From Candidatus Omnitrophota bacterium (GTDB taxonomy: Bacteria > Omnitrophota > Gorgyraeia > JABMSB01): a stretch of DNA of 64,000 bases. The translations under genes were made by a program, and so were the position numbers. Within the stretch, counting starts at the first letter, position 1, and each line of letters begins with the position of its first letter. Below are positions 38,380 to 63,192 of the stretch, piece by piece. The notes below the pieces were generated by a model. It was not told where the DNA came from, searched no databases, and was given only the letters and a program-made list of their open reading frames with translations. Location of the stretch: positions 310 through 64,309 of the forward strand of contig JABMSB010000031.1 in assembly GCA_013202205.1 (NCBI GenBank). The letters are read 5' to 3'.

Positions 38380-39645
38380 ATGAGAGGATATATCAAAAGC
38401 GCTTATTTTCTTTATAAAAAATATATACATAACTTTTCCTGGAGATATTTTGGATATTTTGCAAGAACATGTATAGCTTTTTTTATCTTTCTTATCGCCG
38501 CTAGACTTTTGACACCAGAGGCATTTGGAAAATATAATTACTTTATAGCTATAGCCTCTCTGCTGGCTATATTTGGAGATTTTGGAATAAGCACCTCTGT
38601 CAGCAAATATGTACCAGAGTATAGAATAAAGAACAGAGGAAAGATAAAGTCTATACTTTTTTCTTCATTAACAATTTGTTTTATTTTGTCTTTTTCTGTT
38701 TCGATATTTGTTTTGATTTTCGGGAAAGAGCTTTTTTCCGAGGACTACATATATATTTTATATACGATACCTCTAATATTTCTGATCAGCGGGGTTAGGG
38801 TTTTTGATGGATTTTATAGGGGTTCTGAAAGATTTAAAGAACTCGCCATCATTTCTTTGATTTCTGGTTTGGTTGGTTTGGGAAGTGCCTATTTCTTAAT
38901 CCTTCTTTACGGAGTTGCAGGAGCAATATTTACTCAAGTCTTATCTTATCTTGTACTTTTTACTGTGCTGACAAAATTTACAAAAGAAAGCTTCACGCCT
39001 TTTGATAAGAAAATAGCAAAAACAATTTCTAAATACGCCTTAGTTGTAGGTCTTTCAGGGTTAGCTTATTTTCTTTATACGCGTATTGATATTATAATTT
39101 TGGGATATTATGGATATACAATAGAGATCGGATATTATAGTATTATTGATAAATTTTTTCAATTTTTATTTATACCTTTTGTTTTATTTGGTCAGGTGAT
39201 TGCTCCCGATGTAACTAAATTGGTAACTCAAAAAAAATATCAAAAGGTTAAACAGCGTGGATTAAATATAATTTATTTATTCATTCTTGGAATATGTATC
39301 AGTATTTTTGTTTATTTTCTGGTGCCTCCAATAATCAAGAGCATACTCCCCGAATATTTTAAAAGAGATCTTTTGATGATTTTAAACGTTTTGCTTTTTT
39401 TGTTACCTTTTAAGATTTGTGGTGTGCTAATAGTCAACGGTTTTGTGGTGCCCTCAGGTTTAGCTAAAATAGTAACCGTCATTACAGGCATAGGCGGCAT
39501 CCTTAATGTCTTACTAGATTTTCTTTTTATAAAATGGTATGGGTTTATAGGAGTTTTCTATGTTACTGCGTTACTACATAGTTTAGCCATCATTTTTACA
39601 TATATTATATATTATAGAAGTATCTCAAAAAGGGCATTAGGGTAA
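38380..39645 (+). CDS. Polysaccharide flippase (Wzx / MOP superfamily), 12+ TM
   Basis: 421 aa. Entirely hydrophobic helices. AT-rich membrane-protein codon usage. Confidence 0.7.
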   Translation: MRGYIKSAYFLYKKYIHNFSWRYFGYFARTCIAFFIFLIAARLLTPEAFGKYNYFIAIASLLAIFGDFGISTSVSKYVPEYRIKNRGKIKSILFSSLTICFILSFSVSIFVLIFGKELFSEDYIYILYTIPLIFLISGVRVFDGFYRGSERFKELAIISLISGLVGLGSAYFLILLYGVAGAIFTQVLSYLVLFTVLTKFTKESFTPFDKKIAKTISKYALVVGLSGLAYFLYTRIDIIILGYYGYTIEIGYYSIIDKFFQFLFIPFVLFGQVIAPDVTKLVTQKKYQKVKQRGLNIIYLFILGICISIFVYFLVPPIIKSILPEYFKRDLLMILNVLLFLLPFKICGVLIVNGFVVPSGLAKIVTVITGIGGILNVLLDFLFIKWYGFIGVFYVTALLHSLAIIFTYIIYYRSISKRALG

Positions 39646-40367
39646 TGAAGCCAAGCAAAGTATATTCAAAGATTCGAAATAAGTTATTCAGAAAATTTAT
39701 TATTCTGCATTATTACCTTTATAGAGATGAGCTAAGGACGAAGATAAACCATGTGTTTCAGTATGATGATTTAGATATAGGGTTGTTTTTCGAAGAACAA
39801 GAAGAAGGTGCTTTGCCTGGGGATAAAAAATATAGCGCAGCCGACTATTATAAGTATATGGTTTCTCGATATATATTTTCTATCAGATATATAAAAAACA
39901 AGACTGTACTGGATTCAGGATGTGGTTTTGGTTGGGGATCTTATTTAGTCTGTAATTATCCCGAAAAGATAATTTCAATTGATTTAAATGAAAAGGCCTT
40001 AGATTTTGCAAAGAGCCATTGGGATGATAAAAAATTACATTTTTTAAAATGTTCTTTATTGAATATAGATTCCTTAAACGAGACCTTCGACGTTATTTTA
40101 GGAATGGAGATAATAGAACATCTATCTAGCAAGGATGGAGAGACATATTTATATCAGTGTTTCAGAAATTTAACAGATGGCGGAATTTTAATACTAAGCT
40201 CTTTCTTTCCAGACTTAAGAAAAGAATCAGAGAAGGCAGAAAAGAGGAATAAATTCCACCTAAAGATATTTACAAAACAGGAAATAAAAAAGCTGGCACA
40301 GCATGTGGGTTTTTCAAAAATCCAGTTTTTGGGTAACTTATTAGTAATATTAAAGAAAAGACCATAG
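39645..40367 (+). CDS. Class I SAM-dependent methyltransferase
   Basis: Motif I LDSGCGFGWGS. Motif post-I ISIDLN. Confidence 0.75.
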   Translation: MKPSKVYSKIRNKLFRKFIILHYYLYRDELRTKINHVFQYDDLDIGLFFEEQEEGALPGDKKYSAADYYKYMVSRYIFSIRYIKNKTVLDSGCGFGWGSYLVCNYPEKIISIDLNEKALDFAKSHWDDKKLHFLKCSLLNIDSLNETFDVILGMEIIEHLSSKDGETYLYQCFRNLTDGGILILSSFFPDLRKESEKAEKRNKFHLKIFTKQEIKKLAQHVGFSKIQFLGNLLVILKKRP

Positions 40368-40493
40368 ATCCATTGAAAAATGAATTAAAAGTATATTTGG
40401 CTTGTCATAATCGGGTAGGAGTCAACGCATTTTTAGTTTAAATTGGTAAGGCCCCGTAATTCATTTTAAAAATAAACCGATGGAATAAGCAGG

Positions 40494-41168
40494 ATGAGCA
40501 TAAAAACATCAAAGACTGTACATGAAGATGACTGGAGAAATATAAAGAAAGATTATACTTTTTTAAAAAAGAATAAAGACATTTCAGAAAGGATGGCGTT
40601 ATTAATTAATTTTTTTAAAAGAGTTAAACCTCGAAAGATGTTGGATATTGGGTGTGGTTCGGGCTATTTGGGGTATTTGATTAAGAGAATGGATATGGAT
40701 AGAGATTTAATAATTAAAGGTTTTGATATTTCCGAATATGCTATTAGCCAGATAACATCTTATGATAAAACATATTTATTAGATATCGATAAAAAAGATA
40801 TTCCCGAAGAGAGCGATTATTTCGATATGGTGGTTTGTGGCGAAGTGTTAGAACATATTTATGATGTTGACCATTGCTTGGATGAGATAAAAAGAGTTCT
40901 TAAACCAGGCGGTAAGGCTATTATTACAACTCCAAATTTCAGTTATTGGAAATATCGAATTGTTTGTCTTTTTGGTGGCATTCCAAGCATAACAAAAGAT
41001 CCCCGGCATATTCGCAACTTTAATCATAATTTTCTATTCAGCAAATGTTCTGGTAAAGATTTTGATGTTACATATTCTGTTAGAGAAAAGAAAGATCCTT
41101 TGACTAAAATATTGGGAATAATTTTTAGTAAAATGGTTGTATTAACTTTGACTAAACGAGAGAAATAA
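40494..41168 (+). CDS. Class I SAM-dependent methyltransferase
   Basis: Motif I LDIGCGSGYLG. VVCGEVLEHIYD. LKPGGKAIITTPN. Confidence 0.75.
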   Translation: MSIKTSKTVHEDDWRNIKKDYTFLKKNKDISERMALLINFFKRVKPRKMLDIGCGSGYLGYLIKRMDMDRDLIIKGFDISEYAISQITSYDKTYLLDIDKKDIPEESDYFDMVVCGEVLEHIYDVDHCLDEIKRVLKPGGKAIITTPNFSYWKYRIVCLFGGIPSITKDPRHIRNFNHNFLFSKCSGKDFDVTYSVREKKDPLTKILGIIFSKMVVLTLTKREK

Positions 41169-41287
41169 AATCATGAATAGATCAAAAGAAAACAATGCAA
41201 AATATGGCGAACCATATAAGATTTTTTAGAGATGCTTTTTAGGTGATCCGCTAGTGATATTTACAAAAGAAACATAGGCCCAGCAAA

Positions 41288-42685
41288 ATGAATAAAAAAA
41301 TATGTTTGGTCTACCCTAATTTAATGAAACTCCCCAAGTTTTTTAATAAAGTGACCAATATTCCACAGAGCTCTACCCTTCTTCCGCCTTTAGGATTATT
41401 ATATATAGCTTCAAACTCAAAATACAAAATTGATATAATTGATAATAGGATAGAGAAACTTGCTGAGTTTAAATTATATAGCAGATTAAAAATTTATGAT
41501 ATAGTAGGTTTTGGTGGAACAATATTTGAGGTTCAAGAGGCAAGAAATATTTCTATGCGGTTAATGAAAGAGGGTAAAATTACCATATATGGCGGGCCAA
41601 ATGCCACTGTCAACTGGGAACTTTATGTTGGAGATTTCTCAATCATTATCAGGGGAGAAGGCGAAAATATCTTTGATAAGATAATAGAAAATTATAAGTT
41701 CATAAGAAATATAGAACACTTAGGTTTTAAAGAAATTAGAGGTTCTCTCGTTAATTTGGCTATATTCAGAATAAAGAATCTGGATAGCTTAAAATTTCCA
41801 AATAGAACCTTGATTAAGCTTGAGAGCTATAATAGGATAGAGGAGAATTATTTACCAAACACATATCCGGTAGATACGATTTCAAGCAGCCGTGGATGCC
41901 CCTTTGATTGTTATTTTTGTTCTTCCCAACATATTTGGCAAAGAAGATACACATATAGAACGCCAGACAATATTGTTAGAGAAATTAAAGAATTAATGGA
42001 TGTGTTTGGCACCAGAGGAATATATTTTAGAGAAGATAATTTTACTTTTTCAAAAAAAAGAACAAAAGAATTTTGTAAAAAAATCAAGCCTCTTAGCGTT
42101 AAGTGGGTTTGTGAATCCAGAATAGATGCTATTGATAAATCCTTAGCTATGGAGATGGCCGAGTCTGGATGTAGAGGCATTTGGTTTGGTATAGAGTCCA
42201 CATCCAATCAATCGTTGCGCAAGATTAAGAAAGGAATAACGATAGAGCAAGCAAAAAAAACAATACTTTTATGCAAGAAATATGGGATAATCACGGGGGG
42301 AGGGTTTATGATTGGCTTTCCTTGGGAAGATATTGATGATATGAAAAGGACTTTTGTAGAAAGTAAAAAATTAGGATTAGACAACATTTTCTATAACAGG
42401 ATCTATGCATTTCCGCACTCCGAGATGTATGAAGATATCAGAAAGAAACATCTAAATAGCTGCGAATATAATAATATCATCATCCCCGATACTGAATATA
42501 TTTCCTCAAAAGATGTTACCGAGTTTTATTATAAATGTCAATATAATTGGAAAAAGAGATTAATAAAGATGTTTATTCCCGAGATGCATAGAACACATTT
42601 TAAAAAGAGACACCCAATCTTAACTATGCTGATAAAAAAAAATAGCACAAATATAAAGCACAAGAACCAAGGAACATCGGCATGA
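41288..42685 (+). CDS. B12-binding-domain radical SAM protein
   Basis: N-terminal B12-binding-like Rossmann domain. CxxxCxxC in SSSRGCPFDCYFCSS. 465 aa. Confidence 0.7.
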   Translation: MNKKICLVYPNLMKLPKFFNKVTNIPQSSTLLPPLGLLYIASNSKYKIDIIDNRIEKLAEFKLYSRLKIYDIVGFGGTIFEVQEARNISMRLMKEGKITIYGGPNATVNWELYVGDFSIIIRGEGENIFDKIIENYKFIRNIEHLGFKEIRGSLVNLAIFRIKNLDSLKFPNRTLIKLESYNRIEENYLPNTYPVDTISSSRGCPFDCYFCSSQHIWQRRYTYRTPDNIVREIKELMDVFGTRGIYFREDNFTFSKKRTKEFCKKIKPLSVKWVCESRIDAIDKSLAMEMAESGCRGIWFGIESTSNQSLRKIKKGITIEQAKKTILLCKKYGIITGGGFMIGFPWEDIDDMKRTFVESKKLGLDNIFYNRIYAFPHSEMYEDIRKKHLNSCEYNNIIIPDTEYISSKDVTEFYYKCQYNWKKRLIKMFIPEMHRTHFKKRHPILTMLIKKNSTNIKHKNQGTSA

Positions 42686-43485
42686 ATGACAATCCTAAGA
42701 TATCAGTTGTTATGGCAGCTTACAACGAAGAGAAATATTTAAGAAAAGCTATTGAGAGTATTTTAAACCAAACATTTTCTGATTTTGAGTTTATTATCAT
42801 AAACGACGGCTCAACTGATACTACTTCAAAGATTATTAAAGAGTATATTTCACGGGATTCACGTATTAAGACAAAAGATACAGGAAATTCTGGACTAACA
42901 CGTGCAAAAAATATAGCGCTAGAAATGGCTAAGGGAGATTTGATCGCCATGATGGATGCTGATGATATATCTCTGCCAGACAGGCTGGAAAAGCAAAGGA
43001 GATTCTTAGAGTATAATCAAGATGTAGGATTGCTCGGATCAGGATATTACCGAATAGATGAACAAGGCAATATTTTATATGAGCACAATCCTGTAACCGG
43101 CAGCAAAGAAATACATAAAAATCTTATAAAACGCAATATATTCTGCCATTCAACGATAGTAGTAAGAAGAGGAGTTTTTGATAAAGTAGGCTTTTATAAT
43201 GAGAATTGGCGCACTTCACAAGATTACGAGTTTTACTTTCGGGTGACGAAAGACTTCAAATTAGCTAATCTAAAAATCCCTTTAGTATGCTGGAGGTTGA
43301 GCAAGACAAGCATCTCTTTTACTAGGCAAAAAGACCAGTTAAAAGATGCTCTTCGGGCCCAGCTAAATGCCATGAGAGAGAGGCAATATCCTTTTTACTC
43401 TTATCTGTTTTTAATCCGTCCAGCACTAAAATTAATGTTCTACAACTTAGCCGATAACCAAAAGGATTTTTCGTCTCCACGGTAG
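42682..43485 (+). CDS. Family 2 glycosyltransferase
   Basis: ISVVMAAYNEEKYL. DGSTD. MDADD (DxD). Confidence 0.8.
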   Translation: MNDNPKISVVMAAYNEEKYLRKAIESILNQTFSDFEFIIINDGSTDTTSKIIKEYISRDSRIKTKDTGNSGLTRAKNIALEMAKGDLIAMMDADDISLPDRLEKQRRFLEYNQDVGLLGSGYYRIDEQGNILYEHNPVTGSKEIHKNLIKRNIFCHSTIVVRRGVFDKVGFYNENWRTSQDYEFYFRVTKDFKLANLKIPLVCWRLSKTSISFTRQKDQLKDALRAQLNAMRERQYPFYSYLFLIRPALKLMFYNLADNQKDFSSPR

Positions 43486-43601: not shown

Positions 43602-46118
43602 ATGACAGCCGCAATATTAAAAATCCCATCTATATCTGAAGCTTGTAATTTTTTTATCTTTGCTTCACTTATTTTTCTTATCATTTTTACACCCTTAACT
43701 TTTGGCGCGGTAGAGACATGGTCAATAATGACAATGGAATTATGCATCCTTTTCATGGTTTTATGCTGGTTTCTAAAGATGCTTCACAAGGGTGAACTTT
43801 CTTTTGTTAAGAATCCCATAGTGTTACTTATCGCTTGTTTCATAGGATTGATTTTATTTTCGCTCATCCCATTGCCTAAATTCTCATTGGCTTTATTATC
43901 CCCCAACACAGTTAAATTATACACCATGAGCCTCGGAGACCTGTACAGTTCCTGTCGCTCAATCAGCGTTTATAAATGGCAGACCGCATTCGAACTACAT
44001 AAGGTATTGGCTTATATAGGTGTCTTCTTTATTATTCTAAATAATATGCGGCACAGAAAGGAAATCGACCGTATAGTGATATGCATTATCGCCGTAGGAA
44101 CTTTTCTCGCTATGGTTGGGGTCGCTGAGAGATATGGCCCCGGGAAGATCGTTTTTTTAAGAACGGGGTTTGGGGAGGATGGGTTTTTTGGCCTGTTTGT
44201 CAACAAAAACCACCTCGCTGGATATCTGGAAATGGTAATACCTTTGGCCATAGCGAAGACATTCATTGATAGTAAGAATATAAGGGGTATCTTGTGGGGT
44301 TTCGCTTCCTGCCTTATGTTATCGCAGCTTTTTTTGACATATTCCAGAGCGGGGATTATAAGTTTTTCGATGTCGTTCCTTATGTGCATTGTTCTCCTCT
44401 CTGTTTTAGGGATGCGTAAAGAAAAAAGATATAAGAGGCATTTTTTTATTATTTTGGTTTGCTTAGCCATAACGTTATTGATGGTGGCGTCCGCGTTAAA
44501 GATAACAACAAACCACATGAACAATACGTTACAAACGGATTTATCAACTAGGTTGCAGCTCTACAAGGATATTTTTCGATTGATTCAAAGATTCCCGATA
44601 TTTGGTGTGGGTTTGGGTAATTTTCAAACGGTGTTTCCGATATACCAATCTTTTGCATATAGAAGTATATTTATTTACGCCCACAACGATTACCTACAAC
44701 TTTTTTCGGAATTGGGTATATTTGGTTTTATTATAGTTTTTTGCGGAGGTTTTTATTTTTTTAAGGGTGTTTTAAGTGCCATCTTGGAAAGTTACAATAG
44801 AAACCCGGAGAGCGACCGCTACGTGGTTAGTCTATTGTTTGGATGTTTAGCCGGTTTTTTGTCTATATCTTTTCATAGTTTGCTGGATTTTAATATGCAA
44901 ATCCCTGCAAACGCCCTACTATTTACGATAATAATAAGCATCACGCTGAAATTGATTATTAAAGAACATGGCGAGGTGGAAGATAAAAATGATTATAAAG
45001 TGACAAAAGCGCTTATTGGAAGAAACCGCATAATAGCATATTTTTCCTTTCCCGCCCTGATGATATATGCCCTTTTTCCCATAAGGGTGTTTTTAACGAA
45101 TACCTTTGCGGAAAAGATAAAGGAAGAAACAAAACCCATTTCTGTTTCTATAGATCTCGAGAAACCCCTACATCTCTCTTCCGGCAATAGCGAACTATAT
45201 TATCACTTAGCGGACTTGTACGAGGCCTCAGGAGATAAACACACAGCGATAAGAAATTATATGAGGTCTATAAAGCTCAACCCGCTAAATAGCAAATATC
45301 ATTTTCGGCTTGGATTGATTTCTGGCGTACAAAGAGATTTTGAAAGGGCGACCTTGCTGAATCCAGCCGGAGAAGACATTTATTATGAAACAGGAGTTTT
45401 TTATCTGAAGGGTCATCAACCCATAAAAGGGGCAGAGCAATTTAAGAAGGCTTTGTCTTTGTCTACACATTATGAAGAAGCAATTTTTGACCAAATATGG
45501 GGCTCTTCCGCCGTTTTTGATCATGATAAATATAAAGTTATGGCTGAGGTGATACCCGATAGCCCTGAAGCAAAAGCTAAGCTTGCGAGATATCTTAAGG
45601 ACAAGCAACTGTGGGATGAATCTGAAAGGGAATATCGCGTTGCGATCGACATGGCGAATGGAAAGGAAAAATTGCGCTATATGGCCGATTTTGCGCATAA
45701 TTTTCTCATGAGGGGACGCCGTAGGTTTGGGGATGCCAAAGAGATATGGCTTAAATATATCGCCCTTAATGATACTAATATCCATGCCTTTTTTAACCTC
45801 GGAAGGTGTTATGAATATGAGGGCGAGCTGGATAAAGCTGCCGAATTCTATGCATACGCAATTCAAATGGCTCCAGAGAGAGTATATTATGACAAACTTG
45901 CGCAAGTCTTGTTTAGAAAAGGGGATTATGAAGGGGCGATTGAGACGTGGCAAGAGTGCATTAAAATTTCTCCAAATTTTTCACCCGCCTATTATGGCAT
46001 AGGAGAGTCATATAATAAGCTCGAACAATTTAATCGCGCTCTGTTTTATTATCAAGAAACATTAAGGCTTAAACCAGATGGTAAAGACATCCTGCAGAAG
46101 ATAGAATCTATTAGATGA
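43602..46118 (+). CDS. O-antigen ligase/polymerase (Wzy_C) domain membrane protein fused to C-terminal TPR repeats
   Basis: About 12 TM helices. Wzy_C motif YAHNDYLQLFSELGIFG. About 330-aa TPR tail. Confidence 0.7.
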   Translation: MTAAILKIPSISEACNFFIFASLIFLIIFTPLTFGAVETWSIMTMELCILFMVLCWFLKMLHKGELSFVKNPIVLLIACFIGLILFSLIPLPKFSLALLSPNTVKLYTMSLGDLYSSCRSISVYKWQTAFELHKVLAYIGVFFIILNNMRHRKEIDRIVICIIAVGTFLAMVGVAERYGPGKIVFLRTGFGEDGFFGLFVNKNHLAGYLEMVIPLAIAKTFIDSKNIRGILWGFASCLMLSQLFLTYSRAGIISFSMSFLMCIVLLSVLGMRKEKRYKRHFFIILVCLAITLLMVASALKITTNHMNNTLQTDLSTRLQLYKDIFRLIQRFPIFGVGLGNFQTVFPIYQSFAYRSIFIYAHNDYLQLFSELGIFGFIIVFCGGFYFFKGVLSAILESYNRNPESDRYVVSLLFGCLAGFLSISFHSLLDFNMQIPANALLFTIIISITLKLIIKEHGEVEDKNDYKVTKALIGRNRIIAYFSFPALMIYALFPIRVFLTNTFAEKIKEETKPISVSIDLEKPLHLSSGNSELYYHLADLYEASGDKHTAIRNYMRSIKLNPLNSKYHFRLGLISGVQRDFERATLLNPAGEDIYYETGVFYLKGHQPIKGAEQFKKALSLSTHYEEAIFDQIWGSSAVFDHDKYKVMAEVIPDSPEAKAKLARYLKDKQLWDESEREYRVAIDMANGKEKLRYMADFAHNFLMRGRRRFGDAKEIWLKYIALNDTNIHAFFNLGRCYEYEGELDKAAEFYAYAIQMAPERVYYDKLAQVLFRKGDYEGAIETWQECIKISPNFSPAYYGIGESYNKLEQFNRALFYYQETLRLKPDGKDILQKIESIR

Positions 46119-48852: not shown

Positions 48853-49018
48853 GACTATTAAGATGAGTTACGGAAAAAGATTGAGCAAGATGGGGAAAAG
48901 ATTGCAAGGGGTCGATGGAAATCCGGCTTGGTGACACAGAAGACAATAGATGTGCACAAGAAGGTTTTAATGGACGCAACAGAATAAGTAAGGACTACAA
49001 AATTGACAAGGAGAGATC

Positions 49019-52259: not shown

Positions 52260-52408
52260 AACAGTAAGAATAAAGCTCGATGTATAAAAAATGAAACGAT
52301 ATTTGTCGGAAGGGATACAAAAGCTTACGTCGGACCCATCATTTGCAAGGAAGATAGAAGTTTAAAAAGGTTGGTGGAATAAGCGGAGCAGTTTATAGAG
52401 GATATTGC

Positions 52409-55132: not shown

Positions 55133-56287
55133 ATGGAAAACCATTCGGCCAAAAGAACCTTTCTTAATAGCTACAACCAGCGCAGGCTGAAGATAGGTCT
55201 TTTGTGCGATAAAATAGTGAGATTCTTTTTTCACCCTCCGACGCCAAAGAAACCTCCCAAAGTTTTCTCTAAGATATTAGTTATTCAATCTCACCTTATC
55301 GGCGATCTTGTTATGACCACGCCCATACTGCAGACCCTTAGAAAAGCTTATCCCGACGCACGCATATATCTTTTGGCAAACAAATTCGCTTCAGATTTAT
55401 TAAAAGGAGCCTATTTTGTCGATAAGATCTATACCATTAGATTTCCCTGGTCCACTTATGATTATAGCTGGGGAAACCTGAGAAGCATTTACTCAGTCGT
55501 CAGGTCTTTGCGGAAAGAAAATATAGATCTTGCGATAGACGCCAAAATAGATGCGAGAAATGCATTTTTGATGTTTCTGATTGGTGCAAAAAGGCGTCTC
55601 GGCTACGATATAACAGGTGGAGGATCTTTTTTGACCGACACGCCTGATTTCCCCGCAAATTCGGAAAATATGACCGAAATTAGACTGTCTCTACTAAAAC
55701 ATCTAGGCATAGAGATTAGCGACAAGGCACCAGTTATACCCCTAAGCAAAGAAGATATGACTGTTGCAGAGAACTTTTTGGAAAGTAGACATTTGAATCG
55801 TAATAACCTTGTGGGGATTCATCCTGGAGCAAGCTATAAGGCAAGGATATGGCTTCCTGAAAATTTGGCTGTTGTTATAAGAGGGCTTAAAAAAGAGGGA
55901 GTAGACGTCATTTTGATAAAAGGCCCCAAAGACGAGAGAATAGTCACACAGATACAGGGGATGCTGAAGGAGCCCATAGAGATTTTTGAGGGCACACTTA
56001 AAGGTGTTACCGCCTTACTTTGTTACTGTCGGTTGCTCATATGTATGGATAGCGCGATTCTGCAATTGTCCGCCGCCACAAAAACGCCGACACTGGCAAT
56101 ATATGGATCCACATCACCGCTGAGGACTAAACCACTTACTTCAAACATAGTGATTAGCTATCATAAAGAGTTTGACTGTCAGCCATGCGACTATAACAAA
56201 CCTTTTTGTACAGATAAAAAATGTATGTCAGCAATAACGCCAGAGGAAGTGCTGCGAAAAGCACGGCAAATGCTTAGAAGCAACTAG
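55133..56287 (+). CDS. Family 9 glycosyltransferase (heptosyltransferase-like)
   Basis: ILVIQSHLIGDLVMTTPILQTLRKAYPDARIYLLA. Confidence 0.75.
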   Translation: MENHSAKRTFLNSYNQRRLKIGLLCDKIVRFFFHPPTPKKPPKVFSKILVIQSHLIGDLVMTTPILQTLRKAYPDARIYLLANKFASDLLKGAYFVDKIYTIRFPWSTYDYSWGNLRSIYSVVRSLRKENIDLAIDAKIDARNAFLMFLIGAKRRLGYDITGGGSFLTDTPDFPANSENMTEIRLSLLKHLGIEISDKAPVIPLSKEDMTVAENFLESRHLNRNNLVGIHPGASYKARIWLPENLAVVIRGLKKEGVDVILIKGPKDERIVTQIQGMLKEPIEIFEGTLKGVTALLCYCRLLICMDSAILQLSAATKTPTLAIYGSTSPLRTKPLTSNIVISYHKEFDCQPCDYNKPFCTDKKCMSAITPEEVLRKARQMLRSN

Positions 56288-56323: not shown

Positions 56324-57832
56324 ATGACAAAAAATAGAAAGAGACTTATCGTCCTCGGAATAGATAGTTTAGATTCAGTTTTGCTGAATAGATTCGAACC
56401 CTTCTTACCTAATTTTAAGAGACTAAAAGAACAAATGCCGACTCTAAAATATTCCTCTGTTTTACCTCCTGATTCTATAACTGCATGGGCCAGTATATAT
56501 ACGGGTTGCGATCCCGCAAAACACGGGAGAGTTTATTTTATTGCCGTAGATAAGGTCAATGAGGCCATATATAACGAAATAGATAATAATGACTTTCATG
56601 GAAAGACGTTTTGGGATATAGCAAGCGATGCCAAAAAGAAAGTGTGTGTCCTTTTTCCCCATATAGGGTATCCACCGTGGAAGGTCAATGGTCTAATGGT
56701 GTCGAAAGCCATAACCAAAGAAGAAATAAGAAGTTACCCTGAATCAGCAATCAGGGGTTACGATCTATCAGATGTTAAAAGGTTAAGAGGCGTTCCGACA
56801 GTTTTTCAACGTAAACGTTATATAAAAGATGCACAGCGCCTACTTTTAAATGAAGAGAGTTTTGGATTGCGTATATATGAAGATTATAAGCCAGATCTAT
56901 TTTTCCTTTATTCCAGCGTCTTAGATTTTATAGAACATAACTTTTGGAGTCTTTGCGACAAAGATGACCCTGCTTACCCAGGATCAAATTCATATGAGGA
57001 AGTGATTAAAAAGTTCTACAAGCTCTATGATAATATGCTGGGCAAGTTTTTAAAGTTGCTTGACTCCGAGACAACACTTATGGTATTAAGTGACCATGGC
57101 CACGGTATGAGGCCGGTTAAGTTATTCAATATAAACGAATTCTTAAGACGTGAGGGGGCCTTAGCATCAAAGATAAAAAGCACCCACTTCTACGACCCAT
57201 ATTTCGCAATAGAGCAGCTAAAACACTGCCTTACATTTTTAATAGACAAATTTAGTAAATACGGACTGGGTAATTTGGCAATTTCTGTACTCCACTATTT
57301 TACGGCCGGCAGGAAGCTTTACAAGGCACCATCATATATAGATTGGGATAAGACATTAGCGCATCTGGCAGACCTATCAGGAGTAAAGGCATATTCTTAT
57401 GGAGGGATCGTTATCCGGATGGATAACCTGAAGCAGCAAAACTACGAACAGATACGAACTGAGATAATAGAGAAACTACGAAACATAAAAATTCCTTCCT
57501 CGGGGAAGGCATTATTTAAACTGGTTTGCAGAAGAGAGGATCTTTACAAAGGCAAACACATTTCTAAGTTTCCCGATATACTTTTTGAGCTCTCAGATGA
57601 GTATGGGGCGGGGTGGAGTGTCAATTCCTCGTTATTTGGCAGGACCTATTCACATAAGCTGCATGCCGGAACTCACAAAAGAGATACAGGGGTATTTTTG
57701 ATATCCAACCCTGATAAAATAAGCAAAGATCTTAATGAAATAAGCTGTATGGATATAGCACCTACCGTGTTAGGTTTGCTAGATGTAAAAGGTGATTATT
57801 CTTTTGATGGAAGATGTATAGTGGAGGATTGA
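56324..57832 (+). CDS. Alkaline-phosphatase-superfamily protein of the type I phosphodiesterase / nucleotide pyrophosphatase (NPP) type
   Basis: LIVLGIDSLD. S..P..S..AWASIYTG..P..HG. VLSDHGHG. Confidence 0.65.
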   Translation: MTKNRKRLIVLGIDSLDSVLLNRFEPFLPNFKRLKEQMPTLKYSSVLPPDSITAWASIYTGCDPAKHGRVYFIAVDKVNEAIYNEIDNNDFHGKTFWDIASDAKKKVCVLFPHIGYPPWKVNGLMVSKAITKEEIRSYPESAIRGYDLSDVKRLRGVPTVFQRKRYIKDAQRLLLNEESFGLRIYEDYKPDLFFLYSSVLDFIEHNFWSLCDKDDPAYPGSNSYEEVIKKFYKLYDNMLGKFLKLLDSETTLMVLSDHGHGMRPVKLFNINEFLRREGALASKIKSTHFYDPYFAIEQLKHCLTFLIDKFSKYGLGNLAISVLHYFTAGRKLYKAPSYIDWDKTLAHLADLSGVKAYSYGGIVIRMDNLKQQNYEQIRTEIIEKLRNIKIPSSGKALFKLVCRREDLYKGKHISKFPDILFELSDEYGAGWSVNSSLFGRTYSHKLHAGTHKRDTGVFLISNPDKISKDLNEISCMDIAPTVLGLLDVKGDYSFDGRCIVED

Positions 57833-57866
57833 GCGCGCAGGCAGGAAGGATAAGGTTTATTTAAGT

Positions 57867-58700
57867 ATGATAAACGTTCTAACTTTTGATACAGAAGAGT
57901 GGTTTCAATCGCATGAGCTGGGGATAGAACCACGCAATTGGCAGCATTTGGAATGCAGGGTTTGCGAGAGCGTGAAGAGGATCCTCGCTATCTTAAACGA
58001 GCGCGGTATCAAAGCGACATTTTTTGTTGTTGGATGGATTGCGCAGCGGTATCCAGAATTGGTGAGGGAGATAGTTAATGCGGGTCACGAGGTAGGCAGC
58101 CATGGCTATGCTCATGAGATAGTATATGAACAGACGCCTGAGGATTTTGAAGAAGATCTTAAAAAATCGCTGAATATATTAAAAGACATAACAGGCAAAG
58201 ATGTAATAGGCTATCGAGCGCCATATTATTCTATCACAAAAGATTCTTTGTGGGCCTTGGATATACTACAGAGGTATGGCCTGAAATACGATTCGAGTAT
58301 CTATCCTATTAGCTTAAGGATGTTTACCAAAGGAGGTATTAAGGGATATATATCGAAGCCATGTATAATAAAAGAAGGTTTATTCGAATTTCCTATGCCA
58401 GTTACAGAATTATGCAATTTCAAATTACCGGTGGCCACAGGCATCTATTTTCGTCTATTTCCTTATCGATTTACCAGGTGGGCAATAGAAAAGGCTAATA
58501 AAAGAGGCCTATTCGTAACCGTTAATCTTCACCCCTGGGAATTTGATCCTCTTCAGCCCAGGGTTAAGATGTCATTACCCTATAGCATAAAGCGTTATAC
58601 CAACTTGCATAAGACGGAACAAAGATTTCGCAGGTTGCTTGACGATTTCGACTTTACCAGTTGTAAACACAAGCTCAAGGAGATTTTTGAAGAAAGATGA
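57867..58700 (+). CDS. Polysaccharide deacetylase family protein (EPS-locus subtype)
   Basis: LTFDTEEWF. GHEVGSHGYAHE. 277 aa. Confidence 0.7.
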   Translation: MINVLTFDTEEWFQSHELGIEPRNWQHLECRVCESVKRILAILNERGIKATFFVVGWIAQRYPELVREIVNAGHEVGSHGYAHEIVYEQTPEDFEEDLKKSLNILKDITGKDVIGYRAPYYSITKDSLWALDILQRYGLKYDSSIYPISLRMFTKGGIKGYISKPCIIKEGLFEFPMPVTELCNFKLPVATGIYFRLFPYRFTRWAIEKANKRGLFVTVNLHPWEFDPLQPRVKMSLPYSIKRYTNLHKTEQRFRRLLDDFDFTSCKHKLKEIFEER

Positions 58701-59922
58701 AGATAGCCTTTTTTAATCGCTCATTCCATCCTGATGTTGAAGCAGTGGGTTTGCTTTTAACGGAACTATGCGAAGAACTCACTAAGCGATACAACATCTC
58801 TACTACCGTTGTTGCGGGGTTACCCTATTATTCTGAAAATTCTCAATATCATAAGAAATTCCCTTTTGCGCGCGAACATTATCAAGGTACAAAGATTTTA
58901 AGGGTTTGGTCTCTTAGTTTGGACAAAAGCAAAACTTTTTGCAGATTCGCAAATTATGTCAGTTTTACCATTCTTTCTGTATTGGCAGGTTTTCGATTGG
59001 GGAAGCAAGATATCATAATTGCTCACACCAACCCTCCGACGGTTCCGATAGTTGCGTTTCTATTTGCTAAATTATATAGAGCAAAATTTATCTATTGGTG
59101 CAAAGAGATATTTCCTGAAACAGCAAATTTGCTCAAAGATTATCACAATAGACATATGGATAATATCTTGAATCGAGTTAATCGTTTCCTTTTTAAGAGA
59201 GCGGATAAGATAGTGGTGATTGGAGAGATGATGAAAAAACGTCTAGTGGAAGAGAAGGGTGCACCCGAAGAAAAGATAACAATAATACGCGACTGGGCGC
59301 GGTGTGACCGCATATATCCTGTGAAGGAAAGCAACCCTTTTAAGCTTAAATATGGCCTCGACGGAAAATTAGTAATAATGCATTCGGGAAATATAGGATT
59401 GGCGCAAGAGGTGGAAACGGTGGTAGAGGTGGCCAAGGCTTTCAATGATAGAAAAGATATAGTTTTTTTAATTGTAGGCGACGGGGCCAGGAAAAGGAAT
59501 TACAGAAAAAAGCCGAATCTTATGGTTTGACCAACGTGACCTTTTTGCCATTTCAACCAACTGAGACATTAAAATTTTCTCTTTCGGCAGCGGACATACA
59601 TATCGTTTCTTTAAAAAAAGGTTTTTCGGGTTATTTGGTACCCAGCAAGATATACAATATTCTGGCAACTGGCTGCGCCCTTATAGCCGCGGGGGATGCA
59701 GAATGTGAAATGGTAGATATGGTGCAAAAGTACGAATGTGGTTTTACGTGCCGCCCTGGAGATATTGAAGCTATAGTTTCTTTTATAGAAAAGTGCTATA
59801 ATAATCGCTCATTTCTTAAGCGGATTAGTGAAAATGCACGCAACACAGCGCTTCACTACGATTTTGAAAAGCCTCTTGATACAGCACATAAATTATTTTT
59901 GGAACTAACGCAACAAGGATAA
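58697..59922 (+). pseudogene. GT4 glycosyltransferase disrupted by a single-nucleotide frameshift near 59491-59497 (ORFs 58697-59530 and 59527-59922)
   Basis: Frame 2 reads ...LIVGDGARKRNYRKKPNLMV*. Frame 1 continues ...ELQKKAESYGLTNVTFLPFQ. Adding one base in the GAAAAGG tract restores a full-length GT4. Confidence 0.6.
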
Positions 59923-59933
59923 GGGCATCTAAT

Positions 59934-60962
59934 ATGAGTAGCATAATACAAGCTTTTTTGATAGCGCTAACTTTCGCAATTGTAATTACACCGATTGCAC
60001 GATATCTTGCTTTAAAATCTAATTTTGTCGATATACCAAATGATGAAAGAAAAATTCACAAAAAATCAATTCCTTTGCTGGGGGGATGGGCAATCTATCT
60101 TAGCATTGTTCTCACTTGTTTGTTTAAGTGGGATCTTTTGGCTGATAAGAACTTAATTTTTACTCTCGGGGCAATTACCCTCCTTTTAATAATAGGGACT
60201 CTCGACGATAAAGGAATGCTTAATTCGCAGACAAAACTTATAATCGGAATGCCCATAGCATCTTTGGTGCTTATATCTATCGGCATAAGAATCGATTTTT
60301 TCTCTATGTTTTTAAAACCCCCGTATGGAAATATTCTAGATATCTTATTTACGCTTTTTTGGATAACGGGGTTTACGGCATCTTTTTCAATACTGGATCA
60401 TATGGATGGTTTAAACGTTGGCATAACCGCAATCGCATCAGCTTTCTTTTTGGTTCATTTTATTAATTGCGGTTATGATATGCTGGCAGTAATTTCTGCA
60501 ATTTGTTTAGGTAGTTCGGTTGGTTTTTTGGTCTTTAATTTTCATCCAGCAAAAATATTTCTTGGGGATGGAGGTGCCATGATAACCGGTTTCCTCATGG
60601 CATTTTTGAGTTTAAAAATGCCGGTTCAGAATAGGTATATTGTCTCGAGAGTCGTCACACCGCTGTTGATACTGGTTGTCCCATTTTTCGATACTTCTCT
60701 TTGTATTTTTTCTCGTTCACGCAGAGGTTTGTTGCCTCCTACTGCGCCCGGCAAGGACCATATAGCCCATAGGCTAATGAAATCAGGTTTTGGACAGAAA
60801 AAAACCGCAATGATTTTGTATACCATGGCAATCTTGGGAGGTGTGCTTTCCCTGTTTCTCTCAGCGCTTAGCAAGACAACAACCTGTATTTTTATACTCA
60901 TATCTATCGTTATCTATGTGTCAACAATTTTAAGTATAGAACGATTGCCATATGAAAAATAG
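59934..60962 (+). CDS. Polyprenyl-phosphate sugar-1-phosphate transferase (WecA/MraY family)
   Basis: About 10 TM helices. LGTLDDKGML. 342 aa. Confidence 0.8.
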   Translation: MSSIIQAFLIALTFAIVITPIARYLALKSNFVDIPNDERKIHKKSIPLLGGWAIYLSIVLTCLFKWDLLADKNLIFTLGAITLLLIIGTLDDKGMLNSQTKLIIGMPIASLVLISIGIRIDFFSMFLKPPYGNILDILFTLFWITGFTASFSILDHMDGLNVGITAIASAFFLVHFINCGYDMLAVISAICLGSSVGFLVFNFHPAKIFLGDGGAMITGFLMAFLSLKMPVQNRYIVSRVVTPLLILVVPFFDTSLCIFSRSRRGLLPPTAPGKDHIAHRLMKSGFGQKKTAMILYTMAILGGVLSLFLSALSKTTTCIFILISIVIYVSTILSIERLPYEK

Positions 60963-60998
60963 TCGAGACATATCTTTCTAACGTAAAAGAGGGTAATT

Positions 60999-62003
60999 AT
61001 GGGTCTTCATCAAGGTAAGAAAATTCTAGTAACGGGTGGGTGCGGTTTTATCGGTTCCTACCTCGTAGAGAGATTGATTTCCGAAGGGAACGAAGTCGTC
61101 GTTATTGATGATTTATCGACAGGAATAAAGACGAATATAGAGCATCTGTTGAATAATAAGTATTTTCAGTTCATAAATGACACAATATTTAACTATAGGA
61201 AGATGGAAGAGGTTCTGCAAGGCTGTGACGAGATATATCACCTCGCGGCCTCTGTGGGCGTGAAATATGTAGTAGAGCATCCTGTGGAATCGATCAGGAT
61301 TAATATTAGAGGGACCGAGATAGTGCTTGAGTTAGCAAACCGGTATCACAAGAAGATATTTATCGTTTCATCATCGGAGGTGTATGGAAAGAATATGAAA
61401 CGTATTTTAAATGAAGATGACGATTCCCTCTTAGGTGGCCCAAAGGTACTCCGCTGGAATTATGGACATGCGAAAGCGATAGACGAATTCCTGGCGTTAG
61501 CATATCATATGGAAAAGGGGTTAGAGGTTGTTGTGGGGAGGCTTTTTAATACTTGTGGACCCAGACAGGTTGGGACATACGGAATGGTTATTCCTCGCTT
61601 CATAGAACAGGCATTGAAGGGTGATCCGATAATGGTATATGGTAACGGAAAGCAGGTCAGGGCATTCTGTCATGTGTCAGATACAATAGAAGGCATATTG
61701 CGATTGATGAATCATCCGAAAGCCGTGGGGGATGTATTCAATATTGGCAATCCAGAAGGTATTACCATTTTTAAATTGGCTAAAAAGATCCGAGAGATGA
61801 CGAATAGCAAATCAAAAATTATACTCGTACCCTACAAAAAGGTATTCAGTCAAAATTTTGAAGATATACGTTATCGAGTCCCCGACATAAGGAAGATCGG
61901 AAAGTTAACGGGATATTCGCCAAGAGTGACTCTGGATCAGCTACTCGAGCAGACGATAGCATGGTTTAAAGAGGAGCTCAAAAAGGTCAAGGAGGGCGTG
62001 TAG
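60999..62003 (+). CDS. NAD-dependent sugar-nucleotide epimerase/dehydratase (UDP-glucuronate decarboxylase-like)
   Basis: ILVTGGCGFIGSYL. SSSEVYG. YxxxK. Confidence 0.75.
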   Translation: MGLHQGKKILVTGGCGFIGSYLVERLISEGNEVVVIDDLSTGIKTNIEHLLNNKYFQFINDTIFNYRKMEEVLQGCDEIYHLAASVGVKYVVEHPVESIRINIRGTEIVLELANRYHKKIFIVSSSEVYGKNMKRILNEDDDSLLGGPKVLRWNYGHAKAIDEFLALAYHMEKGLEVVVGRLFNTCGPRQVGTYGMVIPRFIEQALKGDPIMVYGNGKQVRAFCHVSDTIEGILRLMNHPKAVGDVFNIGNPEGITIFKLAKKIREMTNSKSKIILVPYKKVFSQNFEDIRYRVPDIRKIGKLTGYSPRVTLDQLLEQTIAWFKEELKKVKEGV

Positions 62004-62022
62004 TGAAGAGGGGCTTATATAC

Positions 62023-63192
62023 ATGAGGGATGTTGCTATTATCGGGGCGGGGCCCATAGGGAACTACGTGGGATATCTGCTTGCTACGGCCGGACTGGAT
62101 GTTGTGCTTCTTGAAGAACATGCTGTGGTAGGGGAGCCGGCGCACTGTACCGGGATTATAGGGATGGATGCCTTTGAGCAATTTGACCTGCCGCGCAACG
62201 CTGTGGTGGGCGAGCTTAAGAAGGTCAAGATTATCTCTCCCCATAGAAAGATCTTTGATTATGATTTTGATACATCGCAGGCATTAGTTGTGGATCGCTC
62301 AAAGTTCGATAGAGGGATAGCCCAGATGGCTATCCTCAACGGTGCACAGCTGATGATGGATGCCACGGCAACGGGCATTGAGGTGTTGAAGGATCGTGTC
62401 GATATTAAAATCAGAAAAGATGGCAGGATCAAGCGGATAGCGGCTAAGATGGCCGTGATATCGACAGGACTGCATTACGGTCTTCAAGAGCGGCTCGGGA
62501 TGGGCAAGCCGCGGGATTTTTTGAAATGTGCCCAGGTTGAAACGGATGTTATGGACCGCAATGATTACGTTGAGGTCTATTTCGGCAAGAGGTTGGCGCC
62601 GGGCTCATTCGCCTGGGTCGTCCCCATTGAGACGGGTAATGGGCCTAGGGCTCGAATAGGATTAAGTAGTACGCAGTCGGCATCTGCGTATCTTGATAAA
62701 TTTCTTGTTTCGCTTAATTCCAGGGTGTTGAATGCCGAACATCTAGATGTTAAACGCAGCGCCATACCGCTTACGCCCATCGCCAGGACATTTCATAATA
62801 GAGTACTTGCCGTCGGCGATGCGGCCGGGGTCGTGAAGCCGAGCACAGGAGGAGGTGTATTTTATGGCCTGATATGTGCCGGCATAGCTGCTGAAGTTGT
62901 AAAGAAGGCCTTCAAGATAGGGCGGTTTGATCAAAGGGTTTTGAGTGAATATGAGAGGCAGTGGAAGAAGAGGTTGGGGCTTGAATTGAAGATAGGATAC
63001 TATTTTCGGAGAGTCGCTTCTAAATTTACAGATGCGCAACTCAATGATTTGTTTGAGGTTATAACTTCCGATGAGGTGTTGCCGCTTTTAAGGCGTAAAG
63101 CTAAGTTCGATTGGCATAAGGACTTAATGCTTTCCATAGTAAAGCAGGCAGCGGTGAGAAATCTCTTTTTTGGCAGTTTAATGAAGATGTAA
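62023..63192 (+). CDS. FAD-dependent oxidoreductase of the geranylgeranyl-reductase family
   Basis: AIIGAGPIGNYVGYLLA dinucleotide fold. LAVGDAAGVVKPSTGGG. 389 aa. Confidence 0.65.
   Translation: MRDVAIIGAGPIGNYVGYLLATAGLDVVLLEEHAVVGEPAHCTGIIGMDAFEQFDLPRNAVVGELKKVKIISPHRKIFDYDFDTSQALVVDRSKFDRGIAQMAILNGAQLMMDATATGIEVLKDRVDIKIRKDGRIKRIAAKMAVISTGLHYGLQERLGMGKPRDFLKCAQVETDVMDRNDYVEVYFGKRLAPGSFAWVVPIETGNGPRARIGLSSTQSASAYLDKFLVSLNSRVLNAEHLDVKRSAIPLTPIARTFHNRVLAVGDAAGVVKPSTGGGVFYGLICAGIAAEVVKKAFKIGRFDQRVLSEYERQWKKRLGLELKIGYYFRRVASKFTDAQLNDLFEVITSDEVLPLLRRKAKFDWHKDLMLSIVKQAAVRNLFFGSLMKM

Follow-up and report, generated by a model that had tools for sequence, protein, structure and literature searches.

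Among the closest described relatives of the locus analyzed here are the loci for group 1 capsules and exopolysaccharides (EPS), such as E. coli K30 cps and the colanic acid wca locus, and the polysaccharide cassettes of the phylum Omnitrophota. The former comprise an initiating transferase, glycosyltransferases (GTs) of families GT2 and GT4 including a WcaI-like enzyme, a Wzx flippase, Wzy_C proteins, the Wzc autokinase, the outer-membrane polysaccharide export (OPX) protein Wza, nucleotide-sugar enzymes of the short-chain dehydrogenase/reductase (SDR) type and a variable center of low GC content, all of which the present locus shares. The latter are 25-kb cassettes that form population-variable hypervariable regions in complete Omnitrophota genomes (bioRxiv 10.64898/2026.06.07.730766). 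The phylum, the size class, the lipopolysaccharide (LPS)/capsule glycosyltransferase and polysaccharide genes and the low-GC island character are common to these cassettes and to the present locus, whose composition fits them. The locus lies in a 64,000-nucleotide stretch of a Candidatus Omnitrophota metagenome-assembled genome (MAG; assembly GCA_013202205.1, contig JABMSB010000031.1, positions 310 to 64,309), hereafter the window. The original prediction, made from the sequence of the window and its open reading frames (ORFs), opened the locus at 38380; the functional unit spans 33060-63192 and begins upstream of that point, with genes for a PilZ protein, an outer-membrane barrel, Wza and Wzc ahead of Wzx. 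Gene calls were tested by Pfam and NCBIfam/TIGRFAM hidden Markov model (HMM) searches, and family cut-offs are quoted beside the scores. The locus is interpreted, with a probability of roughly 0.7, as specifying a Wzx/Wzy-dependent, Wza/Wzc-exported heteropolysaccharide (capsule or EPS, possibly linked to lipid A-core) and as having a horizontally assembled variable center that carries tailoring modules. The best-supported new result is a recurring five-gene block of lowest GC content, Wzx, methyltransferase, methyltransferase, radical S-adenosylmethionine (SAM) enzyme and GT2, that behaves as a module.

The genes for initiation, sugar transfer, flipping, polymerization and export are as follows.

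33496-34632, plus strand: outer-membrane beta-barrel protein (BBP2_2; PF10082, 56.1 bits; TIGR03016, 57.6 bits, below the cut-off of 90.85) with a signal-peptide-like N-terminus
34616-36157, plus strand: Wza-type OPX export protein (Poly_export and SLBB; TIGR03027, 164.6 bits, below the cut-off of 180)
36167-38017, plus strand: Wzc-type co-polymerase/tyrosine autokinase of polysaccharide co-polymerase class 2a (PCP-2a; Wzz, GNVR and AAA_31; TIGR01007, 202.7 bits against a cut-off of 108)
38380-39645, plus strand: Wzx-type flippase that opens the lowest-GC cassette (Polysacc_synt, 89.7 bits; 11 transmembrane-like segments; GC 0.307)
43602-46118, plus strand: Wzy_C membrane protein with C-terminal TPR, polymerase or ligase (Wzy_C, 80.8 bits; 11 transmembrane-like segments)
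46221-47444, plus strand: GT4 glycosyltransferase (Glycos_transf_1, 123 bits)
47506-48852, plus strand: second Wzy_C protein, polymerase or ligase (Wzy_C, 75.3 bits; TIGR03097, 38.3 bits, below the cut-off of 188)
55133-56287, plus strand: GT9 enzyme of the heptosyltransferase family (Glyco_transf_9, 107.4 bits; TIGR02195, 121.2 bits, below the cut-off of 134.6)
59934-60962, plus strand: initiating phosphoglycosyl transferase of the WecA/MraY family (Glycos_transf_4, PF00953, 92.6 bits; TIGR02380, 111.6 bits, below the cut-off of 326; 9 transmembrane-like segments)

The locus includes each of the components by which a Wzx/Wzy plus OPX/PCP system is recognized, namely an initiating transferase, a Wzx flippase, Wzy_C proteins, a PCP-2a autokinase and an OPX protein. 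As judged from these families, the assembly and export machinery is of the Wzx/Wzy-dependent, Wza/Wzc-exported kind and is ordinary. The HMM searches agreed with the original prediction on the co-directional polysaccharide genes within 38380-63192 (Wzx, two Wzy_C, GT2, two GT4, GT9 and WecA); the export genes upstream of 38380, a polysaccharide deacetylase gene (57867-58700) and a split third GT4 gene (58697-59922) had been missed. In the proposed pathway the WecA-like transferase would begin the repeat unit on polyprenyl phosphate, and five glycosyltransferases (GT2, three GT4 and GT9) would lengthen it at the cytoplasmic face from modified nucleotide sugars provided by SDR enzymes, one UDP-xylose synthase (UXS)-like and one like GDP-mannose 3,5-epimerase (GME)/GalE. 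Wzx would then flip the unit, one Wzy_C protein would polymerize it, the TPR-bearing Wzy_C protein acting as polymerase or ligase, and Wzc, Wza and the outer-membrane barrel would export the polymer. The second Wzy_C protein is a possible ligase to lipid A-core.

That last possibility touches on the alternative that the locus is mainly an LPS locus for outer core and O-antigen, in which a Wzy_C protein is a WaaL-type ligase to lipid A-core and the GT9 enzyme acts on the core. Immediately upstream are genes for lipid A synthesis (lpxD, lpxC-fabZ, lpxA, lpxI and lpxB) together with a GFO/IDH/MocA oxidoreductase and a DegT aminotransferase gene at lpxB, a pair that we take to resemble GnnA/GnnB of 2,3-diamino-2,3-dideoxyglucose lipid A. 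The GT9 protein belongs to the heptosyltransferase family, scoring 121 bits on the heptosyltransferase II model against a cut-off of 134.6, a WecA-type initiator is present, and there are two paralogues of Wzy_C, a family that Pfam names 'O-antigen ligase'. However, Wza, Wzc and the outer-membrane barrel head the same unit and belong to capsule or EPS export rather than O-antigen export, and the deacetylase scores above the cut-off of an EPS-system family, that of XrtA. A mainly LPS locus is accordingly possible but somewhat unlikely. It is also compatible with the capsule/EPS interpretation, as E. coli group 1 capsules occur in LPS-linked form as well, and for the present polysaccharide an LPS-linked form is plausible, given that a lipid A cluster adjoins the locus and that a GT9 gene is present.

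Within this capsule/EPS locus the recurring block opens with the Wzx gene at 38380 and continues as follows.

39645-40367, plus strand: class I SAM methyltransferase MT1, CMAS/UbiG-like in fold only (Methyltransf_25/31/11; no NCBIfam match above cut-off)
40494-41168, plus strand: class I SAM methyltransferase MT2 (Methyltransf_11/31/23)
41288-42685, plus strand: class-B-like radical SAM enzyme with an N-terminal Rossmann-like domain and a radical SAM barrel (Radical_SAM, PF04055, 69.6 bits; CPFDCYFC, of the form CxxxCxxC)
42682-43485, plus strand: GT2 glycosyltransferase (Glycos_transf_2, 133 bits; EpsE/TuaG-like, below cut-off), whose gene shares 4 nt with that of the radical SAM enzyme

Metagenomes and MAGs account for the whole radical SAM family, which comprises ~100 uncharacterized clusters at 45-57% identity; the named sources are Omnitrophota, Nanoarchaeota, Deltaproteobacteria and Desantisbacteria. 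Gene contexts were drawn from every close member with usable flanks (L003/L004, L005/L006/L100, L090/L095, L091, L092, L096-L099 and L101), that is, from homologue-encoding contigs and one metagenome scan. The family gene lay within a glycan locus in all of the contexts inspected (~10 independent). A GT2 gene was adjacent or near wherever the flank was present, a Wzx-type flippase gene occurred in eight of the nine contexts with enough flank, and a class I methyltransferase gene adjoined the radical SAM gene in most. The order Wzx, methyltransferase, (methyltransferase), radical SAM, GT2 is common to the window, L003/L004, L005/L006/L100 and L096. Orthologues of MT1 adjoin the radical SAM gene in L003, L004 and L005, and an orthologue of MT2 (336 bits) does so in L097. 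A scan of GTDB species representatives with the family profile retrieved only relatives at ≤33% identity, many of them in tandem arrays in archaeal MAGs and in mixed contexts, and these were left out as orthologue context. The simplest reading is that the cassette adds one modified sugar and supplies a flippase that accepts the resulting unit.

The radical SAM protein matched 19 curated NCBIfam models, all far under their cut-offs (top score 129.9 bits against 577.6). The best matches were the HpnJ, ApyD, BchE and Sden_1168 (P-methyltransferase) families at ~125 bits against cut-offs of 480-750. Its best PDB sequence match was AprD4 (77.7 bits, 18-19% identity). An AlphaFold model built with 15 family members (pLDDT 87.8) had a Rossmann-like N-terminal domain, and its fold matches placed AprD4 first (E 1e-22, TM-score 0.69), followed by the cobalamin enzymes TsrM, MgmA, OxsB and TokK. 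Judged from this model, the two-domain class B architecture of the enzyme at 41288 is real. The Rossmann-like N-terminal domain and the radical SAM barrel with CxxxCxxC are shared with AprD4 and with the class B enzymes TsrM, MgmA, OxsB, TokK and GenK. AprD4 is the radical SAM 1,2-diol dehydratase of apramycin biosynthesis, acting on the aminoglycoside intermediate paromamine, and is not known to use cobalamin. In contrast to AprD4, no AprD3-like reductase partner is conserved with the present family; its conserved partners are the methyltransferases, GT2 and Wzx. Acting as a unit, the cassette would contribute a single sugar modified by the radical SAM enzyme, through C-methylation or, on the model of AprD4, through deoxygenation or rearrangement.

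Two further observations concern the relatives of this cassette. Large membrane proteins of the PMT_2/PMT family (GT-C, ArnT-like) are encoded near the radical SAM/GT2/Wzx cassette in L003, L004 and L091 and are absent from the window; they hint that sugars are transferred in the periplasm from polyprenyl-phosphate donors. Many MAG loci, L093 (13883-18133), L010, L011, L017 and L073 among them, contain three to six class B radical SAM paralogues in tandem, some of these arrays within glycan clusters; their hosts are Bathyarchaeia, Nanoarchaeia and Bacteroidales MAGs and one metagenome contig.

Two other tailoring genes that flank the GT9 gene are candidates for phosphate chemistry.

53452-55128, plus strand: GT4 fused to a C-terminal P-loop kinase domain of thymidylate kinase (TMK) fold, residues ~335-558 (Glycos_transf_1, 49.6 bits; GVDGSGKT and DRY)
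56324-57832, plus strand: cytoplasmic NPP-family enzyme of the alkaline phosphatase superfamily (Phosphodiest, 105.3 bits; no signal peptide or transmembrane segment)

The fusion of a GT4 to a dTMP-kinase-like domain had been predicted, and the motifs and fold of the domain agreed with this. The Pfam score was less secure: against a cut-off of 27, the TMK model PF02223 scored 23.7 in the whole fusion protein and barely passed, at 27.7, for the domain alone. In a structural model (pLDDT 84.7) all of the top 50 PDB fold matches were TMKs (E ~1e-8, TM-score 0.53-0.71, query-normalized), at 16-20% identity. The domain thus resembles TMK in its Walker A motif (GxDGxGKT), DRY motif and fold, and differs from it in being fused to glycosyltransferases and in having an extra helical, partly hydrophobic segment of ~60 residues between P-loop and DRY. 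Full-length GT4-kinase homologues were found at 33-38% identity (P0242, P0247, P0248 and P0250). Elsewhere the kinase domain is N-terminal to GT4 (P0304, P0307 and P0313) or is fused to GT2 (P0321) or to another domain (P0315). Ten fusion proteins have the Walker A and DRY motifs without variation, and D460, R506 and Y523 are likewise invariant among these homologues. Because kinase and glycosyltransferase have been fused repeatedly and in both orders, the two probably serve a shared pathway step by the Rosetta-stone argument. The hydrophobic helical segment and the glycosyltransferase fusion argue for an acceptor other than dTMP, and the domain may phosphorylate a glycan or lipid-linked acceptor instead. 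Glycan and glycolipid kinases include LpxK and WbdD, the kinase-methyltransferase terminator of E. coli O9a, whose families differ from that of the TMK-like domain. In the proposed pathway the domain would phosphorylate the sugar that its GT4 partner installs or accepts, perhaps at the membrane via the helical insertion.

The NPP-family enzyme contains the motifs GIDSLD, DSITAWASIYTG..P..HG and SDHGHG, which we presume, as a lead, to be metal ligands and a Thr-nucleophile-like element; it had no NCBIfam or PDB sequence match. It may handle a phosphodiester or phospho-sugar of the same branch. Genes for a GT4-TMK fusion and a Phosphodiest-family protein occur together in two other loci, so that a combination that had been thought odd recurs. 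The first, L093, also encodes GT9, a 367-aa radical SAM protein, four B12-domain radical SAM proteins, methyltransferases, Bac_transf and a homologue of the geranylgeranyl reductase (GGR)-family protein described below; the second, L094, in a Desulfotalea MAG, has a PRK-family kinase, GT2s, a GT4, an HAD gene, Wzy_C and Wzz. The suggestion in the original prediction that the glycan is possibly phosphorylated is plausible in view of the conserved kinase-GT fusions and the co-occurring NPP genes. A broader proposal is advanced tentatively, as one that we consider more doubtful than probable: that the five-gene block is a mobile, self-contained module for a C-methylated or deoxygenated sugar on lipid-linked glycans of uncultivated anaerobes, that the GT-TMK fusions are an unrecognized family of glycan or glycolipid kinases, and that radical and phospho tailoring are new to Wzx/Wzy polysaccharides.

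The remaining genes of the unit's 3′ part and the epimerase gene near its middle concern sugar supply, deacetylation and transfer, together with a terminal flavoprotein gene.

49019-50035, plus strand: SDR nucleotide-sugar epimerase, GME/GalE-like (Epimerase, 158.9 bits; best PDB match 2c59, GDP-mannose 3',5'-epimerase, 140.9 bits)
57867-58700, plus strand: XrtA-system-type polysaccharide deacetylase (TIGR03006, 296.6 bits against a cut-off of 276.2; Polysacc_deac_1 and DUF3473)
58697-59922, plus strand: WcaI-like GT4, split into ORFs of 277 aa (WcaI positions 1-274) and 131 aa (positions 283-388)
60999-62003, plus strand: SDR like UDP-glucuronate decarboxylase, i.e., UDP-xylose synthase (best PDB match 4lk3, UXS1, 205.7 bits, E 1e-59)
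62023-63192, plus strand: GGR-family flavoprotein, last gene of the unit (TIGR02032, 193.5 bits against a cut-off of 158.8; best PDB match 3oz2, 92.3 bits)

Two epimerases had been predicted; this held for the SDR at 49019 and failed for that at 60999, which is a UXS-like decarboxylase and suggests a supply of UDP-xylose. The deacetylase would take off N-acetyl groups, and the three class I methyltransferases of the locus would O- or N-methylate. The GGR-family protein has a GxGxxG motif at residues 8-13, in an FAD-binding N-terminus, and its best PDB match, 3oz2, is digeranylgeranylglycerophospholipid reductase. The L093 homologue is full-length (110 bits), ends its locus and adjoins the Bac_transf gene.

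The GGR gene raises the alternative that a lipid is the substrate of the radical SAM, methyltransferase and GGR enzymes. This could be the polyprenyl carrier, a membrane lipid or a glycolipid anchor, and its isoprenoid or alkyl chains would become saturated and methylated. Reduction of isoprenoid double bonds is the reaction of the GGR family, the protein exceeds the TIGR02032 cut-off, and a GGR homologue is again found beside an initiating transferase in L093. MT1 has CMAS-type matches, the class-B-like radical SAM protein weakly matches HpnJ, HpnR and 'lipid biosynthesis B12-binding/radical SAM' families, a second radical SAM protein of the locus (A, below) matches GDGT-MAS (35.5 bits), and the insertion in the TMK-like domain is hydrophobic. 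Yet those family matches are far below cut-offs, the conserved partners of the class-B-like enzyme are GT2 and Wzx rather than lipid-synthesis genes, and its best structural relative, AprD4, acts on a sugar. Furthermore, the GGR gene has genome-like GC (0.487), stands last and may be a mere neighbor. Lipid modification is thus an improbable function of these genes, and tailoring of a polysaccharide is preferred.

GC content changes in steps along the polysaccharide locus. The value is 0.486 for bases 1-28000 of the window, 0.41-0.45 from the PilZ to the Wzc gene, 0.30-0.36 in the Wzx-to-GT2 cassette (38380-43485), the lowest of the locus, and 0.37-0.42 in most other genes. The exceptions are the epimerase gene at 49019-50035 (0.461) and the GGR gene, with the same GC as the genome. 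Such stepped low GC is usual for serotype-type variable regions that are exchanged horizontally. The 21 ORFs in 38380-63192 are all on the plus strand with intergenic gaps of -4 to 191 nt, and the gap between Wzc and Wzx is 362 nt. The central 21 kb is 99.99% identical to the JGI metagenome contig L001, from which it differs at two sites, a C/T SNP at 58444 and a 1-bp deletion in the A-run at ~59491-59495 (A4 in the window, A5 in L001). The deletion splits the WcaI-like GT4 gene, which is intact on L001 (408 aa); the frameshift may reflect phase variation, a strain difference or an error of assembly.

Composition and frameshift also bear on whether the locus is a decaying mosaic of horizontally acquired cassettes, partly non-functional and specifying no single coherent glycan pathway. 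Such decay would match the GC steps (0.30-0.36, 0.37-0.42 and 0.49), the broken GT4 gene and the population variability of Omnitrophota polysaccharide cassettes (bioRxiv 10.64898/2026.06.07.730766). Nevertheless, of the 24 genes 23 are intact and run in one direction, closely spaced or overlapping, the frameshift, which the independent assembly L001 lacks, affects a single homopolymer base, and catalytic motifs are intact in the enzymes that were checked. Decay is therefore considered quite unlikely, and a coherent locus with a horizontally assembled center is favored.

The middle of this locus also contains two radical SAM genes of the SPASM type and a third methyltransferase gene.

50227-51354, plus strand: radical SAM/SPASM protein A (Radical_SAM, PF04055, 62.3 bits; SPASM, PF13186, 21.8 bits against a cut-off of 21.5, marginal)
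51354-52259, plus strand: class I SAM methyltransferase MT3 (Methyltransf_23/31/11), overlapping the gene for protein A by 1 nt
52409-53455, plus strand: radical SAM/SPASM protein B (Radical_SAM, 45.5 bits; SPASM, 39.4 bits)

Cysteine motifs are visible in both SPASM proteins. Protein A is a near-orphan: among 5.8 billion clusters there was one homologue at 50% identity and the rest were at ≤30%. The gene for the 50% homologue (L007) is also followed by a class I methyltransferase gene, at which the contig ends. A relative at 30% identity (L008) is encoded inside a glycan locus with Bac_transf, a MurJ/Wzx-type flippase, two GT4, a FemAB-like acetyltransferase and a deacetylase-TPR protein. The PDB matches of protein A were all weak, namely PqqE (50.5 bits), SkfB, BlsE (38 bits), GDGT-MAS (35.5 bits) and MoaA; BlsE is a sugar-nucleoside decarboxylase. 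The family of protein B is broader and unnamed (126 representative clusters at E≤1e-30), and the protein had no PDB sequence match. Its gene overlaps that of the GT4-TMK fusion by 4 nt. In two distant loci, L063 and L087, a SPASM-B-like gene is found with methyltransferase, SDR and class B radical SAM genes, and in L087 with GT2 also. Six-frame translation of the gaps 48853-49018, 50036-50226 and 52260-52408 yielded no precursor-peptide ORF. As there is no precursor-peptide candidate nearby and the gene for protein B overlaps the next glycosyltransferase gene, context makes a sugar the more likely substrate of the SPASM radical SAM proteins than a peptide. These two proteins and MT3 would alter a sugar oxidatively or by C-C/C-H chemistry.

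That proteins A and B and MT3 instead form a cassette, inserted by chance, for maturation of a ribosomally synthesized and post-translationally modified peptide (RiPP) or of a cofactor is most improbable, because although SPASM radical SAM proteins are best known as peptide or cofactor maturases and the top NCBIfam/PDB matches are of that kind (AhbD/NirJ, MftC, PqqE, SkfB and MoaA), those matches are all far below cut-offs, the neighboring gaps hold no plausible precursor, the genes overlap or abut glycan genes, a relative of protein A is encoded within a glycan locus (L008), and L063 and L087 repeat the combination of a SPASM-B-like gene with methyltransferase, SDR and class B radical SAM genes.

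The unit is headed by a gene for a possible regulator.

33060-33488, plus strand: PilZ-domain protein, first gene of the unit (PF07238, 40.1 bits against a cut-off of 22.5; RxxxR at R9-R13, RRMYVR, and DxSxxG, DISAGG)

The gene stops 7 nt before that for the outer-membrane barrel. A 12/12 sigma-70-like site, a match to consensus only, lies upstream at 32783-32811; the promoter and terminator scans of the window were not clearly above shuffled controls (72 against 60.5±7.5 and 19 against 14.1±3.2). The PilZ protein is a candidate receptor for cyclic di-GMP, and intact motifs at the operon head suggest post-translational control by this nucleotide, which when bound to PilZ would tune export. An Rfam search of the window retrieved no cyclic di-GMP or cobalamin riboswitch and had a single match, tRNA-Gln at 12177-12250. 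The locus had been predicted to be bracketed by cyclic di-GMP components. The upstream PilZ part of the bracket stands, whereas the downstream GGDEF part does not: the gene at ~63640-64000 (minus strand) is convergent, lies outside the unit and is cut by the window end. Its C-terminal 121-aa fragment, with the motif HEGGDDFVMI, had no match to GGDEF (PF00990) at E≤1 and a weak 13-bit match to Cas10/Cmr2 palm2, and may be a divergent palm-domain cyclase. Between this gene and the unit are a 95-aa ORF (63293-63580) with a signal-peptide-like N-terminus and no family match, and a GC-rich hairpin with T-run terminator (63607-63634) that separates the locus from the convergent gene.

The tailoring enzymes all are without signal peptides or transmembrane segments and are predicted to be cytoplasmic; tailoring therefore probably occurs before flipping, on nucleotide sugars or on intermediates linked to undecaprenyl diphosphate. 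Past assignment to families, every step of the scheme is one that we infer. The Pfam searches supported the three class I methyltransferases (39645, 40494 and 51354) and two SPASM radical SAM proteins of the original prediction, and the NPP-family phosphodiesterase (105 bits) and the GGR-family flavoprotein, above the TIGR02032 cut-off, were recovered as well. The view that the locus is enriched in non-standard tailoring enzymes is likewise sustained, as radical SAM proteins, methyltransferases, NPP and kinase fusion all are below the cut-offs of curated functional families.

Several points weigh against the proposed heteropolysaccharide pathway. No tailoring enzyme reaches the cut-off of a curated equivalog model, such that we infer the substrates, and the sequence comes from a MAG. 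The B12-binding domain PF02310 was not detected in the class-B-like radical SAM protein, either whole (E≤1e-3) or in residues 1-197 (E≤1), and is present in some of its homologues at 45-52% identity. Of the B12-binding radical SAM enzyme that had been predicted, the radical SAM core stands and the B12-binding assignment does not, support for class B coming from sub-cut-off alignments and fold. Because no B12-binding Pfam domain was detected, methylation by this enzyme is no better supported than dehydration or rearrangement. The claim of a heavily methylated glycan, which counted the enzyme as a methylase, is not upheld, the closest relative, AprD4, being a non-methylating sugar dehydratase. 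SPASM protein A is nearly without relatives, and the evidence from its context is two loci. By phmmer, no homology was detected between the NPP genes of L093 or L094 and that of the window, so that the co-occurrence of NPP genes with GT4-TMK is at the superfamily level only; orthology was considered and rejected on this ground. UDP-glucose dehydrogenase, which feeds a UXS-like enzyme, is absent from the locus. Finally, with a frameshifted GT4 gene the locus in this assembly may not be fully functional.

The surroundings of the locus are of a housekeeping kind. Upstream genes include hisG, transketolase, an FtsH-like gene, clpX, dnaB and bamA. The transketolase is specified by separate N-terminal (6187-7053) and C-terminal (9714-10661) genes, between which are an FtsH-like AAA protease gene (7060-8685) and an ORF of 342 aa without a Pfam match (8686-9714). 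A probable surface adhesin, large and with Big_9, cadherin-like and He_PIG Ig-like domains, is encoded at 135-2039, and GC is 0.54 in the first 2 kb. The lipid A cluster, directly upstream of the locus, spans 23205-32670, with fused lpxC-fabZ at 24152-25603, lpxI at 26392-27195 and the lpxB, GFO/IDH/MocA and DegT genes, as assigned by Pfam, on the minus strand at 29521-32670. It contains an AAA_14/DUF4143 ATPase gene (28292-29500) in a local GC dip (0.416, 28001-30000) that possibly is an inserted element.

Surface glycans decide interactions with phages, predators and hosts, and in the Omnitrophota, which are largely host-dependent and ultra-small, the polysaccharide cassette is hypervariable. 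If the proposed tailoring is correct, radical C-H functionalization and phosphorylation by P-loop kinases would join the known tailoring reactions of polysaccharides. The finding is at the level of annotation, from a MAG, and provides three compact targets for enzymology, each present in independent loci: the class-B-like radical SAM enzyme with its methyltransferases and GT2, the GT-fused TMK-like domain, and the cytoplasmic NPP.

Compared with known systems, the locus differs from those for group 1 capsules and EPS in having three radical SAM enzymes, three class I methyltransferases, a GT4-kinase fusion, a cytoplasmic NPP and a GGR flavoprotein; moreover, a PilZ gene and the gene for an additional outer-membrane barrel stand at its head, and no Wzb phosphatase was seen. 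EPS loci of the XrtA/PEP-CTERM kind are similar in that the deacetylase passes TIGR03006 and that XrtA-system models are the best or near-best matches of the barrel, Wza and Wzc. In contrast to those loci, the three export proteins are all below the XrtA cut-offs (TIGR03027, 164.6/180; TIGR03018, 137/230.65; TIGR03007, 118.5/278.85; TIGR03016, 57.6/90.85). No exosortase, EpsI-type asparagine synthase or PEP-CTERM protein was recognized among the annotated ORFs of the window. With one tested marker (TIGR03006) above cut-off and a window without exosortase, assignment to the XrtA/PEP-CTERM system was rejected as unproven. The WbdD system also combines a kinase and methyltransferases in a glycan pathway, but with an ABC transporter rather than Wzx/Wzy. 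The study of Omnitrophota cassettes (bioRxiv 10.64898/2026.06.07.730766) treats variability rather than enzymology and reports no analysis of radical SAM or kinase modules. No described pathway for the gene set was found in the literature; the outcome that would have refuted the original prediction, a characterized pathway with these genes or radical SAM proteins of well-known sugar-modifying families, therefore did not arise. The locus had been held to be singular; however, other uncultivated lineages also have its modules, and the described hypervariable cassette is of the same type. Thus, the machinery of the locus and its cassette type are known, whereas three recurring modules within it are uncharacterized.

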